A stretch of DNA of 64,000 nt from a virus: positions 32,001-96,000 of the IMG/VR virus record IMGVR_UViG_3300020421_002402. One strand, 5' to 3'. Below the pieces are notes generated by a model. That model was not told the DNA's origin. It was given only the letters and a program-made list of their open reading frames with translations, and did no database searches. This document shows positions 17,446 to 54,404 of the stretch, in pieces. The position numbers and the translations under genes were made by a program. Every line of letters starts with the position of its first letter. The stretch's first letter is position 1.

Positions 17446-18861
17446 ATGCTATTCGGTATATTCACATTAATAACAGCCTTAGCCATTGCCGGAGTTGCGG
17501 CATGGTTTTCCATTGAAGGACTAATGGCAATTTTCAGTGCCTCAGCACTTCCTATTGCAATAATGGCTGGAACACTTGAAGTTGGTAAGTTACTTACTGC
17601 AAGTTGGCTGTATAGATATTGGCATGAAACTTCATTGCTATTAAAAACATACTTGTCCATAGCCGTGGTTGTTTTGATGTTAATCACAAGTATGGGTATC
17701 TTTGGATATCTATCTAAAGCACACTTGGACCAAGCAGGTGAAACAGGTGATGCTTTTGCAACAGTAGAAAGAATAGATGGACAAATACAAAGAGAAGAAA
17801 ACAAAATTGCACTACTCGAAGATAGAATATTAGGAGTAGGTGGTAGTATAGATGTTTCCGAAAGTATTAAACAACAAGAAGAAATAAGAGATGGTGCTTG
17901 GGCAAGAGTTCAAGGTGATATAGATTATGCAAATGGTCAAATAGATAGATTAAGAGACCAACTAGCAGTATTAGACAAAGCAGTAAATGACCTTAGAGAG
18001 AAAGGTGTTGAAGTTGTAACACTAGATGAAGGTGGTGCTTTTAGACAAGCAGAAACTGAAAAGATTGATTATGTAGCACAGGCAAATGAATTATTTGCAC
18101 AACAAAAAGAACAACGAGACGAAATTAGAGCAGATATACAAGTTCAACAAGACAACATTGACAAGTATAGAGCACAGGCACAGAAAACAATTGATGATGC
18201 CAATGCTGAAATTAATAAATTAAGAAATCAAAACAGCAGTCAACAAGATGAAAACATCATAAAGATAGATGAATACAATACACAAATTGATAGTATATTT
18301 GATAATATTGTAATATTAAAAGATGAAAAGTTTGAAGCAGAAAGTATTGTACGAAACTTAGAAAAAGAAGTAGGTCCTATTAAGTATGTTGCACAATTAA
18401 TATATGGCGACGATACAGAAAGTTATTTGGATCAAGCAGTAAGACTGTTTATTTTAATGCTAGTGTTTGTATTCGATCCACTAGCAGTTGTATTAATCAT
18501 AGCCGCTAACCAAACATTATTACGTTATGGCATTAACTTGGAAAAAACAGGACCTGATTTAAGAGACCAATTAAAAGACGATAGTCCTCCAGATTTACCA
18601 AGACAACCTAGTCCACCAAGTGCGGTTGATGATGCGGCAGATGTTATGTCAGGTTATAAACAACCTGCACCTATAATTGTAGAAAAAGAAGTTATCAAAG
18701 AAGTACCAGTAGAAGTCATTAAGGAAGTAGAAAAAGAAGTTGTTGTTGAAAAAGAAGTTGAAGCAGAAATAGATTTGAGTACACCTCCTGCTATTAAAGA
18801 ATTGGAAAAACGACTAGCAAAGAAACTGAAAAAAGATGGCAAAAAAGAAGATAACAGTTAA
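17446..18861 (+). CDS. membrane protein with long coiled coil and VEKE repeats
   Basis: 3 N-terminal TMs, LEVGKL, EVGPIKY, VFDPLAV. Confidence 0.8.
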   Translation: MLFGIFTLITALAIAGVAAWFSIEGLMAIFSASALPIAIMAGTLEVGKLLTASWLYRYWHETSLLLKTYLSIAVVVLMLITSMGIFGYLSKAHLDQAGETGDAFATVERIDGQIQREENKIALLEDRILGVGGSIDVSESIKQQEEIRDGAWARVQGDIDYANGQIDRLRDQLAVLDKAVNDLREKGVEVVTLDEGGAFRQAETEKIDYVAQANELFAQQKEQRDEIRADIQVQQDNIDKYRAQAQKTIDDANAEINKLRNQNSSQQDENIIKIDEYNTQIDSIFDNIVILKDEKFEAESIVRNLEKEVGPIKYVAQLIYGDDTESYLDQAVRLFILMLVFVFDPLAVVLIIAANQTLLRYGINLEKTGPDLRDQLKDDSPPDLPRQPSPPSAVDDAADVMSGYKQPAPIIVEKEVIKEVPVEVIKEVEKEVVVEKEVEAEIDLSTPPAIKELEKRLAKKLKKDGKKEDNS

Positions 18862-19618
18862 AGAAGCATTAAATGTATTAAATACAAAGTATGCTAACAC
18901 ATTAGAAATGTTAGATGATGCTTTGGATCAAATAGAAGATTTAGAAAACGAACTGGCTAAAAAGCCTAAGGAAGTGCAAGTTGAGGTCGAAAAGGTTGTC
19001 ACAGTTGAGAAGGAGATCCTTGTCCCAGAGGAGAAGTTGGTCACTATCGAAAAGGAGGTCCCAGGACCAGAACGAGTTGTCGAAGTGCCAGGACCAGAAC
19101 GAGTCGTCGAAGTCCCCGTCGAAGTAATTAAGGAAGTAGAAGTTATAAAAGAGGTAGAAGTGCCTGTTGAAGTTCCTGTTGAAAAGATAGTGGAAAAGAT
19201 AGTTGAAAAAGAAATTAAAATAGAAGTACCTGTAGAAAAAGTTGTAGAAAAACTTATACAAGGTCCTGAAAGAGTTGTTGTAAGAACTGACAATAGAGAA
19301 ATAGACAGACTTACAGCCTTAGTAGCAGAGTTAGAAAATAGATTAGAACAGAGACCTATCAAAGAAAAAATTGTTGAAGGTCCTAGACGTGCAGTCAGAG
19401 TAGAACTACCAAACACCGGTGACCTCAGGACTGCGGCAACACTTATAGCAAATAGTGAAATGAATATAAATGATTTATCCACAGATGAAATACTCAGTAT
19501 GTTGCAAGAATTAAGTGAAGAAGATGTAAATAAACAGTTGGGAGGTTTTTGGGCAGTCCCATTACCAAACGATACAGATGACGACACAACAGACACAAAC
19601 TATGTTACGAGGAAATAA
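18836..19618 (+). CDS. V/E/K/P repeat protein (articulin/IMCp-like repeats)
   Basis: VEVPVEKIVEK and VPGPERVVE repeats. Confidence 0.75.
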   Translation: MAKKKITVKEALNVLNTKYANTLEMLDDALDQIEDLENELAKKPKEVQVEVEKVVTVEKEILVPEEKLVTIEKEVPGPERVVEVPGPERVVEVPVEVIKEVEVIKEVEVPVEVPVEKIVEKIVEKEIKIEVPVEKVVEKLIQGPERVVVRTDNREIDRLTALVAELENRLEQRPIKEKIVEGPRRAVRVELPNTGDLRTAATLIANSEMNINDLSTDEILSMLQELSEEDVNKQLGGFWAVPLPNDTDDDTTDTNYVTRK

Positions 19619-20886
19619 TGCCCGGTGATAAAGAACACGAACAAAATCTAAGTTGTAGTTTTTGTGGAAAAAAGCGAACTGAAGTAAAAAAGTTAATCGC
19701 TGGACCTAATTCATACATTTGTAATGAATGTATCAATATTAGTCACAAAATTATTAATGAAGAAGATTCATTAGAAGATTTAACCTTCGAAGATATACCA
19801 ACACCAGAAGAAATCAAAGCACACCTTGATGACTATGTTATTAGTCAAGAATATGCAAAAGAAATTTTGTCAGTCTGTGCATACAATCATTACAAAACAA
19901 TTTACAACGACAGTGATACTCATATAGAAAAAAGTAACATTGTTATATTAGGTAATACAGGAACAGGTAAAACACTTTTAGCAAAAACATTAGCAGAAAA
20001 ATTAAGTGTACCTTTTGCAATAGCAGATGCAACAACATTAACTGAAGCAGGATATGTTGGCGAAGATGTTGAAAGCATGTTAGAGAGATTACTTAATATG
20101 TGTGATTGGAATTTAGAATTAGCACAAAAAGGTATAGTGTTTATAGATGAGATAGATAAAAAGGCTCGTAAGGGCGAGTCTAACACCGGCACAAAGGATA
20201 TAAGTGGGCAAGGTGTACAACAAGCACTTTTAAGACTAATAGAAGGTACAGTAGTTAAAGTATCTTCAAATGGTTCAAAACGTATGGATCAATACGTTGA
20301 ATTTGATACTACTAATGTACTTTTTATATGTAGTGGTGCATTTGTGGGATTAGAAAAACAAGTAAACACAAAAGCAAACAAAAAGAATATTGGATTCAAC
20401 AAACAATTAAAAACACCAGCAAAGAAAAATACATGGCAACACAAAGTAGAGCATGACGATTTAATCACGTATGGTCTTATCCCTGAACTGGTTGGTAGAT
20501 TACCAAACATAGTTCCTTTAGAACCTTTAACACAATCTGATATGAAAACAATTTTGAAATCATCAAAAGCAAGTGTATTACCACAAGTTAAAAAACTTAT
20601 GGAGTTCGATGATATACAACTAGAATTTAATGATGAGTATATAGATGACATTGCCAAAATGGCTAGTAAAACAAAAACTGGTGCTAGGGGATTGAAATCT
20701 ATAGTAGAAAACAGTTTACATAATATAATGTTTAGGGCACCTAAACTAAAAGAAAATGGAGTTAAAACCGTACGTTTCAACAAATACCCTACAAAAGATG
20801 TTGACACTTACCCTGTTTTCATATATACTAACGGTAATGAAAAATCAGATAATGATTATAAAATAAAAATTAGAGGTAAAAGTTGA
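19618..20886 (+). CDS. clpX: Clp protease ATPase subunit ClpX
   Basis: CSFC..CNEC zinc domain, GNTGTGKT, IDEIDK, GVQQALL, IGF loop, GARGL. Confidence 0.95.
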   Translation: MPGDKEHEQNLSCSFCGKKRTEVKKLIAGPNSYICNECINISHKIINEEDSLEDLTFEDIPTPEEIKAHLDDYVISQEYAKEILSVCAYNHYKTIYNDSDTHIEKSNIVILGNTGTGKTLLAKTLAEKLSVPFAIADATTLTEAGYVGEDVESMLERLLNMCDWNLELAQKGIVFIDEIDKKARKGESNTGTKDISGQGVQQALLRLIEGTVVKVSSNGSKRMDQYVEFDTTNVLFICSGAFVGLEKQVNTKANKKNIGFNKQLKTPAKKNTWQHKVEHDDLITYGLIPELVGRLPNIVPLEPLTQSDMKTILKSSKASVLPQVKKLMEFDDIQLEFNDEYIDDIAKMASKTKTGARGLKSIVENSLHNIMFRAPKLKENGVKTVRFNKYPTKDVDTYPVFIYTNGNEKSDNDYKIKIRGKS

Positions 20887-51416: not shown

Positions 51417-51455
51417 ATGGTTGACAACTATACTGTATTTGTGTATAATATACCT

Positions 51456-51647
51456 ATGAAACATCTAATTAAGTGGATGAAAATATCTGCATTTATTAAT
51501 TTTTACCTATGTGTAATTATGACTTTAGTATTGATTGCATTAATGGTAGATATTGGATTAGACAGTTATTGGCATGGTAATGATTTTAAAACAAAACTAC
51601 TTAATGAAGTAGAACAAATTGAATGCACGACAACAGGAAATTGCTAG
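51456..51647 (+). CDS. small membrane protein
   Basis: Leaderless after TTGACA-17-TATAAT 51421-51449; start reassigned. Confidence 0.6.
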   Translation: MKHLIKWMKISAFINFYLCVIMTLVLIALMVDIGLDSYWHGNDFKTKLLNEVEQIECTTTGNC

Positions 51648-51985
51648 TCAATAAAACAATCAATGAGTATGTACGTTCTGTACAAATTCAATTAGCAACA
51701 GTAATTGGTTTACATTGTTTAATTATTGGATACTTTTTTCCAATGTTTTTAGTAACAATTACTTTTGTTCCAGCAACCTTTTATATACTTTGGTGTTACA
51801 TAGCATTAATTTATGAAGTAGAAGGCACTAATAGAGATAACTTAATCGCTTTAATAAATGCTTCGGAACATGAACCTACACGAAAACTTCTATTGCAAGA
51901 GTTATGGTATGCTGACCTACATAGTTTGGGTGGCGTTACAGAAGATACAATAGACATGGCGACCTATGCCAATACACGAATATAG
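51623..51985 (+). CDS. membrane protein
   Basis: Two hydrophobic segments. Confidence 0.6.
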   Translation: MHDNRKLLVNKTINEYVRSVQIQLATVIGLHCLIIGYFFPMFLVTITFVPATFYILWCYIALIYEVEGTNRDNLIALINASEHEPTRKLLLQELWYADLHSLGGVTEDTIDMATYANTRI

Positions 51986-52057
51986 AATATAAACAGTTAT
52001 AAAGATAAATATTAGTGTTATATAGCAGATGGCTTATAACTTAAATCAGGAGAAGAT

Positions 52058-52339
52058 ATGAATAAACTTTATTCACTTCTTGCAATCCTTGGTTTAGTTT
52101 TCTTACCTTCATGTGCCTCAGTTGGAGCAGTTATAGAAGGTGGTAAAGATTTCACAACAGGTGTAATTGATGGATCTGTTAATGCGGTTGGAGGTATTAC
52201 CCAAGCCGCTTTACAAGATGTATCTAGCATTACGGCAACGGCGGCAGAGGCGGCTGGTGGTGTAGTTGAAACTGTTCGTAGTGAAATTGATGAACAAACC
52301 GATGAATTACAAGATACCACTCCGGAAAAAAAGGACTAA
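52058..52339 (+). CDS. lipoprotein (short form)
   Basis: MNK + hydrophobic core + LPS-C lipobox-like; AGGAG RBS; late motif ~52003. Confidence 0.8.
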   Translation: MNKLYSLLAILGLVFLPSCASVGAVIEGGKDFTTGVIDGSVNAVGGITQAALQDVSSITATAAEAAGGVVETVRSEIDEQTDELQDTTPEKKD

Positions 52340-52431
52340 GCCATTCACAACAGAATGGCATAGATGGTGATATAAAACTTTTGATTAAAGAATTAAAAAG
52401 ATATTGTAAAGCCAATCCTAAGGAGTGCTAA
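52327..52431 (+). other. programmed -1 frameshift signal and transframe extension
   Basis: A_AAA_AAG 52327-52333, 6-nt spacer, GCCATTC/GAATGGC stem, open -1 frame to TAA 52429-52431. Confidence 0.75.
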
Positions 52432-52455
52432 TTATTAACATAATTACATAACTAC

Positions 52456-52487
52456 AAAAAAGGGGGTCTAGTAAGGCCCCTTTTTTT
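52456..52487 (+). terminator. intrinsic terminator
   Basis: GGGGTCT-AGTA-AGGCCCC-T7, A-tract upstream. Confidence 0.8.
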
Positions 52488-52548
52488 ATGGACATCTAGA
52501 TAAATACTGCTATAATAGATTGTCTATTATGATTATGTAGGAGTAATT

Positions 52549-53969: not shown

Positions 53970-54404
53970 ATGAAGTTAGCAGAACTTTTAGAAGCAGTAA
54001 AGCGAACTCGACTTAACGCAAACGCCGGTGGCGGCGGAGGCGGCGGTGGTGCTGGCGGCGGTGGAGCCGGCGGTGGCGGTGCTGGAGCAGGTGGCTCAGG
54101 TGGAGCAGGCGCAGGAAGTTCTGGAGGAGGCAGTGGTGCTACTGGTTCCGCAGGTAACGGTTCAAGCACATCAGGTTCTAGTGGAGACAGCGGCGGTTCT
54201 GCAGACTCTGGTGCTAGTGATAGCAGTAGTGATTCGTCCGCTGATTCCACACCATCACAAAGTGGAACAGGTGTAGGGTTAGGATATTTTGTACCATTCG
54301 GTAGCAGACCTTACAAAAAGAAAAAGAAAAAGAAGAAAAAGAAAACATCAAACACTGGTGCTCCTAAGGCGCCAAAAGGTGATCCATATAAAGACCATCG
54401 ATAG
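53970..54404 (+). CDS. Gly/Ser-rich protein with poly-Lys tract
   Basis: MKLAELLE, GGN repeats, K10. Confidence 0.65.
   Translation: MKLAELLEAVKRTRLNANAGGGGGGGGAGGGGAGGGGAGAGGSGGAGAGSSGGGSGATGSAGNGSSTSGSSGDSGGSADSGASDSSSDSSADSTPSQSGTGVGLGYFVPFGSRPYKKKKKKKKKKTSNTGAPKAPKGDPYKDHR

Follow-up and report, generated by a model that had tools for sequence, protein, structure and literature searches.

Comparative evidence for a conserved programmed -1 ribosomal frameshift in a lipoprotein gene of uncultured marine jumbo and T4-like phages

A small lipoprotein gene of an uncultured phage ends in the codons CCG GAA AAA AAG GAC TAA, and an earlier note on this DNA read the end of the gene as a programmed -1 frameshift site that adds a cysteine-ended tail to the protein. 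Whether the gene carries a genuine recoding signal, and what such a signal would mean for a phage envelope protein, is the question addressed here. To our knowledge, few programmed frameshifts have good support in bacteria and phages beyond those of tail-assembly chaperones, capsid genes, dnaX, and insertion sequences. Full-text literature searches returned no report of a frameshift in a phage lipoprotein or for this lipoprotein family. The gene lies in the window, by which we mean the whole 64,000-nucleotide stretch that was analyzed, positions 32,001-96,000 of IMG/VR record IMGVR_UViG_3300020421_002402. The parent viral record is 110 kb long and was rated 31% complete by CheckV, so the phage genome is estimated at ~350 kb.

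The lipoprotein ORF occupies 52058-52339 on the plus strand and encodes a 93-aa precursor, as given by the ORF list and the homologues. Direct reading placed the slippery heptamer A_AAA_AAG at 52327-52333 (plus strand), in the X_XXY_YYZ phase of this ORF, so the site claimed at the end of the gene was exact to the base. The 0-frame stop TAA (52337-52339) stands one codon past the heptamer, inside the 6-nt spacer that leads to a predicted hairpin. Both A_AAA_AAG and G_GGA_AAG, a second heptamer found in some homologues, are highly shift-prone in E. coli (Atkins et al. 2016, PMC5009743). Just four in-phase copies of A_AAA_AAG occur in the ~18,700 codons of the window, and only the one in the lipoprotein gene precedes a long -1 frame. 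This rarity, together with the conservation of the arrangement in homologues, indicates that the lipoprotein signal is more than chance. The length of the open -1 frame after stop codons was unusable as a null, with 45% of genes having at least 30 open codons there because the next gene follows in a tightly packed genome. The other three in-phase heptamers lie near the 5' ends of two adjacent genes (18836-19618 and 19618-20886), where slipping would abort the protein because the -1 frames close after 2-5 codons. Elsewhere in the window, a 144-aa ORF (53970-54404) consists largely of Gly, Ser, and Ala and has a ten-lysine run near its end; the lysines are encoded by a long A-rich tract, which could be slippery as well, and the opposite strand of the ORF carries a long proline-rich ORF.

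The 93-aa protein has 182 related protein clusters, nearly all of them 88-97 aa long and from marine metagenomes, and some are on contigs of 320-345 kb. We collected 80 loci from viral contigs and 80 from metagenome contigs, which left 110 distinct loci after duplicates were removed; all of these homologous sequences are metagenome assemblies of uncultured phages. No relative turned up among 50,697 GenBank phage records, searched at the DNA and protein levels, or in a pattern scan of GTDB species genomes, so the family is known only from uncultured viral and metagenome contigs. Among the loci with an in-phase heptamer near the stop, a -1 tail with the terminal motif [Y]CxxxPxxC is present in every one of the 95 that could be judged. 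This count includes two apparent exceptions, in which the motif search had matched the next gene first and the -1 tail is present; it leaves out five further loci of the 110 in which the contig carries a heptamer and ends before the tail can be judged. All 10 loci that lack the heptamer also lack the tail, and in these a terminator or the next gene comes directly after the stop.

The heptamer and the extension have thus been gained or lost together. In a tree built from the protein body, at least two switches of heptamer type and at least two changes in the presence of the tail were counted. The contrast is clearest between close relatives: L028 and L029 read CCA AAA AAG GAC TAA and have the tail, whereas L023-L026 have nearly the same body but read CCT AAA CAG GAC TGA, followed at once by a terminator.

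The slip site itself is kept in the homologues in two interchangeable types. All 84 distinct shift-site contexts have the heptamer in phase, as A_AAA_AAG in 76 and as G_GGA_AAG in 8. The codon before A_AAA_AAG in these contexts is CCA, GAA, GCA, or TCA. The last codon of the heptamer is AAG in 84/84 contexts, in contrast to the lysine codons elsewhere in the genes, which are AAG in 16% and AAA in 84%. The 0-frame stop is also present in every context, either directly after the heptamer (0 nt, 26 contexts) or 3 nt later (58 contexts). Runs of 6 A occur in 52 contexts and runs of 7 A, as in the window, in 24; the 8 contexts with G_GGA_AAG have runs of 3 A.

The predicted stimulatory hairpin was located at 52336-52363 (plus strand) by folding and covariation. 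Its core pairs GCCATTC (52340-52346) with GAATGGC (52353-52359) and begins 6 nt after the heptamer, and the perfect 7-bp stem with a 6-nt loop described in the earlier note is correct as stated. Three further outer pairs are possible between 52336-38 and 52361-63. The 74 nt starting from the heptamer fold at -15 kcal/mol (z = -4.45), and 1 of 200 shuffles was as good. In 62 distinct homologous sequences, a hairpin follows the heptamer with a modal spacer of 6 nt and a mean z of -3.0 against shuffles; lineage L065 is an exception, with the hairpin ~29 nt downstream of the heptamer. The stems differ in sequence by lineage and include GCCATTC/GAATGGC, GCCAGCC/GGTTGGC, GCCTATTCTCC/GGAGAAT-AGGC, and GCCTTTTCTC/GAGAAAAGGC, and the clade with G_GGA_AAG has CTTCATC/GATGAAG. 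A different, two-tier structure is found in the clade in which A_AAA_AAG is followed by TAG.

Compensatory changes are present in these stems. When a subgroup with the same geometry was aligned, 93.7% of the cells could pair, compared with 40-54% when the partners were slid, and four pairs showed compensatory changes. A covariance-model alignment of 42 distinct sequences gave 94.5% pairing cells, compared with 50-60% for slid partners, and compensatory changes in 8/11 pairs, values that were reached in 0/500 shuffles; this alignment was fitted to the structure, so these best covariation figures are favored by it. When 48 shift sites were simply aligned with MAFFT, the alignment contained no gaps and yielded no consensus structure, since the loops differ in length. 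The stem sits where the tail peptide is least conserved, which points to selection on the RNA. A stable structure 5-9 nt downstream of the heptamer has been kept by selection.

The -1 extension covers 52333-52431 (plus strand), with 32 sense codons and a TAA at 52429-52431, as supported by alignment and pN/pS. From 52333 this frame reads GLSHSQQNGIDGDIKLLIKELKRYCKANPKEC; reading also confirmed that it is closed upstream by an in-frame TGA (52303-52305) and ends just before the terminator. The tail is made up of a variable linker, the amphipathic helix DIKLLIKELKRY, and a C-x6-C terminus. In an alignment of 29 distinct tails, a tyrosine, a cysteine, a proline, and a second cysteine are invariant, with the amphipathic helix ahead of them; in the window, these residues are encoded at 52402-04, 52405-07, 52417-19, and 52426-28. 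Across the family, the extension is 31-51 aa long. AlphaFold2 modeled the tail alone with a mean pLDDT of 83, as a helix at residues 4-27 followed by a short turn holding the second Cys, and the conserved part of the tail was modeled as a helix with pLDDT >90.

The extension is conserved as protein in the -1 frame. Among 70 distinct tail DNAs, pN/pS is 0.43 in the -1 frame versus 1.02 and 1.40 in the other two frames, and variation is highest at third codon positions, so that the expected homologue signature of purifying selection on the -1 peptide is present. The -1 ORF opens 2-15 codons before the shift site in the homologous loci. The absence of its own start, claimed for the window, extends to 77/80 loci; in only three does an SD-like motif accompany an ATG, GTG, or TTG start codon before the conserved helix. 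The -1 frame therefore appears to be coding while having no initiation signal of its own. A continuous fused ORF was looked for in homologues and not seen. An in-frame fused form was absent among the 120 related clusters that were listed, in which the few longer members are mis-called starts or aberrant ends, and among 46 representatives at 50% identity from 1.84 billion proteins; a tail-profile search of longer proteins likewise gave no in-frame fusion, which is weak evidence.

Two likenesses to the tail were seen in downstream proteins. In one subclade (L135:1513-1696 and L138:411-570), a protein with a signal peptide lies right after the tail and has F-C-x3-P-x2-C near its N-terminus. In other lineages, a downstream DUF5658-like protein has Y-D-C-x-x-E-x-N-P, which recalls the Y-C-S-E-N-P of the tail. 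These likenesses may be coincidence.

The same layout could be explained in other ways. RNA polymerase might add one A within the A-run, so that an edited mRNA encodes the long protein. Such transcriptional slippage would give exactly the same product, and the run in the window is 7 A long; productive slippage in bacteria has been reported for runs of ~8-9 or more (An, n > 7; Antonov et al. 2013, PMC3711429). However, the tail is kept in the 52/84 contexts in which the run has only 6 A and also in the eight G_GGA_AAG contexts with a run of 3 A, to which slippage cannot apply. The heptamer is strictly in phase, its AAG does not vary, and a covarying hairpin stands at 6 nt, all of which are marks of a ribosomal signal; we regard slippage as very improbable. 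It is equally improbable that the shift occurs but the short form is the sole functional product, with the downstream DNA kept for RNA reasons such as mRNA stability or termination. The hairpin and the terminator are indeed RNA elements, and the tail-less lineages show that the body can work alone. The purifying selection is frame-specific, however, the invariant Y, C, P, and C lie well beyond the hairpin, and the conserved part of the tail is modeled as a confident helix (pLDDT >90 with AlphaFold2).

The tail might instead be a separate small gene, translated either from a start of its own or through termination-reinitiation at the end of the lipoprotein ORF; such coupling could be supported by the position of the 0-frame stop, which falls within the -1 ORF. 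We consider this extremely unlikely. Start codons with SD-like motifs were seen in only 3/80 loci, and the loss of the tail accompanies the loss of the heptamer, which an independent gene would not need. The product would also be a free peptide of 20-30 aa with no signal peptide, yet its paired cysteines suggest an oxidizing compartment. The least probable explanation, to which we give almost no weight, is an assembly or sequencing indel in the homopolymer or a decaying pseudogene, so that the gene is truly one continuous ORF or the tail is dead. Homopolymers are error-prone, and the sequence comes from a metagenome contig. The two-frame layout, however, recurs in ~95 independent assemblies from many samples and technologies, including sites free of homopolymers; no continuous ORF was seen, and the tail is under purifying selection.

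Programmed -1 frameshifting is well supported because the heptamer and the tail co-occur, selection acts on the tail in the -1 frame only, the hairpin covaries, and neither a fusion nor a start of its own was found. With high confidence on these comparative grounds, we propose that ribosomes undergo a programmed -1 shift of the dnaX/IS3 type on the lipoprotein gene. The mechanism is classical. Most ribosomes would read ...GAA AAA AAG GAC and stop at the TAA at 52337, giving the 93-aa prolipoprotein and a mature protein of 75 aa. Some ribosomes would be held by the hairpin 6 nt downstream with two tRNA-Lys on AAA AAG, slip back by one base to A AAA AA, and continue with GGA CUA AGC... through 32 further codons. 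The shifted product would be a 124-aa precursor with a mature form of 106 aa, and its predicted junction peptide is ...PEKK/GLSHSQQNGIDGDIK (...EKK-GLSHSQQ...). The isoform sizes of 93 aa and ~124 aa proposed earlier agree with these two precursors, and the two isoforms might be made at a fixed ratio. We infer shifting in the real host and its efficiency, as well as the localization, disulfide, and function of the products.

The proposed signal can be compared with known frameshifts. The closest likeness in signal is to E. coli dnaX (tau/gamma), which has the identical A_AAA_AAG, a hairpin ~6 nt downstream, and a tRNA-Lys slip from AAG to AAA. In dnaX, two products are made from one gene in a set proportion (summarized in PMC3711429). 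The genes are unrelated, and the shifted product of dnaX is the shorter one, whereas the shift in the lipoprotein gene extends the protein. An upstream SD-like enhancer raises the efficiency of dnaX frameshifting to about 50%, and no enhancer of this kind was seen at the lipoprotein shift site. IS3 and IS911 (orfA-orfAB) also share A_AAA_AAG, the downstream hairpin, and an orfA stop near the slip site, but there the shift makes transposase fusions in mobile elements and here it would add a short tail to an envelope protein.

Among phage genes, T7 gene 10A/10B is alike in that a -1 shift in the last codons adds a C-terminal extension. As reportedly described by Condron, Atkins, and Gesteland in 1991, the shift in 10A/10B gives a minor long form of the abundant major capsid protein. 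The T7 slip is of the G_GUU_UUC type in a cytoplasmic structural protein, in contrast to the predicted exported lipoprotein. The lambda G/GT tail assembly chaperone uses G_GGA_AAG, which some lipoprotein lineages also have, with the 0-frame stop adjacent; in both cases, very divergent phages have kept the signal, and the presumed role of the long form is that of an adaptor. The lipoprotein, however, is not a tail gene, does not precede a tape-measure gene, and has no sequence similarity to G/GT, and its extension of 31-51 aa differs from the whole domain added in lambda. As a small phage lipoprotein with important cysteines and a predicted outer-membrane location, it resembles T5 Llp, Cor-type exclusion proteins, and Rz1-type o-spanins. 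It has no detectable homology to these proteins and is not proline-rich, and no long i-spanin lies beside the gene, where neither an endolysin nor a holin was identified. We know of none of these lipoproteins, T5 Llp, Cor-type, or Rz1-type, in two frameshift-made forms.

The features of the precursor are those of a bacterial lipoprotein processed by signal peptidase II. It has a basic N-terminus (MNK...), a hydrophobic stretch (LLAILGLVFL), and then PSC, with a predicted 18-aa signal peptide, the lipobox LPSC, and Cys19 encoded at 52112-52114. The Pro at -2 of the lipobox is unusual. In a 29-sequence alignment, the lipobox Cys is invariant with S or G before it, and the variants are LPSC, VSC, TSC, IGC, QSC, and ASC. 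A Shine-Dalgarno sequence AGGAG was read directly at 52048-52052 (plus strand), 5 nt before the ATG, and GGAG is kept at this position among the homologues. The signal peptide and Cys19 are common to both forms, so both are expected to be exported and lipid-anchored in a Gram-negative envelope, and the E. coli +2 rule, given an Ala at +2, would place the anchor in the outer membrane.

The mature short form of 75 aa has about six eleven-residue amphipathic repeats and an acidic end, EIDEQTDELQD. Within the body, CASVGAVIEGGK is nearly invariant across the 182 related clusters. The hydrophobic periodicity of the mature body is sharp at 3.67 residues, which is the basis for six 11-residue repeats, and the common body would form a ~60-residue amphipathic helix. 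AlphaFold2 modeled the body as a single long helix (residues 24-85) at low confidence, with a mean pLDDT of 57.5. The long form alone would have the flexible linker, the short amphipathic helix, and the C-x6-C end, which the oxidizing periplasm would probably close into a disulfide loop.

The body, the tail, the neighboring membrane proteins tm63 and tm120, and a 54-aa ORF could not be assigned to any usable family in Pfam, PHROGs, or NCBIfam. The best PHROG match of the lipoprotein is a family of unknown function (E = 4.5e-4), no Pfam or NCBIfam match was above threshold, and membership in known families of these databases, including Lpp and the exclusion lipoproteins, was not found. The protein atlas returned viral hypothetical clusters only and offered DUF6726 at a score of 0.87, which is a lead only. 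The body profile also matched repeated stretches of a YadA-type autotransporter stalk, which we read as similar periodicity and not homology. Two PPR-repeat proteins matched in the representative search were regarded as repeat or composition artefacts, and a 28-nt match found elsewhere in the genome falls within a Clp-type ATPase gene and was attributed to chance.

In the window, the lipoprotein gene appears to be the last of a co-oriented three-gene unit running from a promoter through tm63, tm120, and the lipoprotein gene to a terminator. The putative sigma-70-like promoter at 51421-51449 (plus strand) is a pattern match only, TTGACA-17-TATAAT, and agrees with the consensus at 12/12 positions. 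It lies inside the longest ORF call for tm63, so tm63 probably starts at 51456. By the ORF list, the first gene, tm63 (51456-51647, plus strand), encodes a small single-pass membrane protein, with a predicted periplasmic C-terminus of ~30 aa that ends in C-x5-C in the phage of the window, and the second, tm120 (51623-51985, plus strand), encodes a small multi-pass membrane protein. The intrinsic terminator (52452-52491, plus strand) has a GC-rich stem with an A-run and a U7 run, folds at -20.4 kcal/mol (z = -4.9), and begins 20 nt after the end of the -1 frame; a simple scanner did not list it.

A leader hairpin (52017-52040, plus strand) lies upstream of the lipoprotein Shine-Dalgarno sequence and has an apical GCAGWTGGC and a covarying lower stem. 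It is kept in 31/82 distinct upstream regions with eight different complementary lower stems, and its apical sequence across leaders is given as GCAG(A/T)T(G/T)GC; other lineages have different hairpins at this position. This element could be a processing site, an mRNA stabilizer, or a translational control element.

The conserved partners of the lipoprotein are the two small membrane proteins upstream, present in about half of the lineages. When only loci with at least 700 nt of upstream DNA were counted, a homologue of tm63 was found upstream of the lipoprotein in 48/83 tail-bearing loci versus 0/8 tail-less loci, and tm63 and tm120 were found together in 37/83 tail-bearing loci. The pair was found only beside tail-bearing lipoproteins. 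The lipase and the holin-like gene that the earlier note had placed in the same module did not hold up as partners. The lipase, assigned to class 3 by Pfam (E = 2e-25), is preceded by a separate promoter-like site and adjoins the lipoprotein in the closest relative only, and the supposed holin-like gene is the 54-aa membrane ORF that matches no family.

The setting of the gene varies among phages. In L005, L008, and L012, the lipoprotein gene comes after a curlin-repeat protein (PF07012); on its 3' side lies a DUF5658-like membrane protein in L005 and L012 and a CHASE2 adenylate/guanylate cyclase in L008, the only locus tested for it, and a FecR-domain protein lies further upstream in L005. 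This curlin/CHASE2 setting is the 'curli' region of pelagimyophages described by Zaragoza-Solas et al. 2020 (PMC7029224), where neither the lipoprotein nor a frameshift is mentioned. In another setting, the gene follows a T4-type major capsid gene whose product is ~70% identical to the capsids of Methylophilales phage Melnitz and Pelagibacter phage HTVC008M. It also occurs after a gp32-like gene or between a DNA polymerase and a uvsX-like gene, as named by eye. Because the neighbors are so varied, we suggest that the lipoprotein gene is a self-contained small gene. A T4-late-promoter-like TATAAATA was observed ~53 nt before the lipoprotein start in L023, L028, L029, and L153, where the gene comes after the major capsid gene. 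The timing of expression may thus differ between phages, with a late-like promoter there and a sigma-70-like one in the window; when the regions upstream of the lipoprotein were surveyed for promoters, neither an early nor a late signal appeared consistently.

The role first proposed, in the envelope, lysis, or exclusion, is a guess. Tentatively, and with the balance somewhat against it, the lipoprotein may be a self-contained envelope protein of which the minor long form is an adaptor docking onto a partner, with a role in superinfection exclusion or envelope remodeling or, less likely, in lysis. A more specific scheme is unlikely as it stands: the frameshift would set the share of the minor adaptor isoform, and through its disulfide-looped tail the helical lipoprotein, anchored in the outer membrane, would dock onto a partner in the inner membrane or periplasm; in about half of the lineages this partner would be tm63/tm120. 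The result would be a novel type of trans-envelope tether, built by the phage, that blocks the entry of DNA from rival phages or prepares the envelope for lysis.

Spanins were considered and rejected on the features examined. In a lysis cassette, the partner of an o-spanin is an i-spanin with a long coiled coil in the periplasm, encoded by a neighboring or embedded gene, and a u-spanin has a C-terminal TM segment. As the i-spanin of a two-component spanin, tm63 has only ~30 periplasmic residues and is absent from 35/83 tail-bearing loci, and this tells against a two-component or unimolecular spanin. A u-spanin was also set aside, the long form having no C-terminal TM segment. No endolysin or holin family was found among the neighbors searched.

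In summary, the aim of this analysis was to determine whether the end of this lipoprotein gene carries a programmed frameshift signal. From comparative sequence analysis, we conclude that the frameshift in the jumbo-phage lipoprotein is real and strongly conserved, and that a short protein and a longer protein with a two-cysteine tail are very probably both made. The support is unusually clean for a comparative case, with two interchangeable heptamers, a covarying hairpin, and the joint loss of signal and tail, and the family offers a natural test set for frameshift predictors. The protein concerned is a predicted exported envelope protein of abundant uncultured ocean phages, and its carriers include relatives of SAR11 and OM43 myophages, T4-like phages, and jumbo phages of ~350 kb. 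In thousands of marine viral contigs, the long isoform is at present absent from the gene calls, and the shift site described here offers a correction. The helix and the C-x6-C loop provide a lead to a periplasmic module, and if the tether reading were true, the lipoprotein would be the first recoding-controlled envelope protein known in phages.
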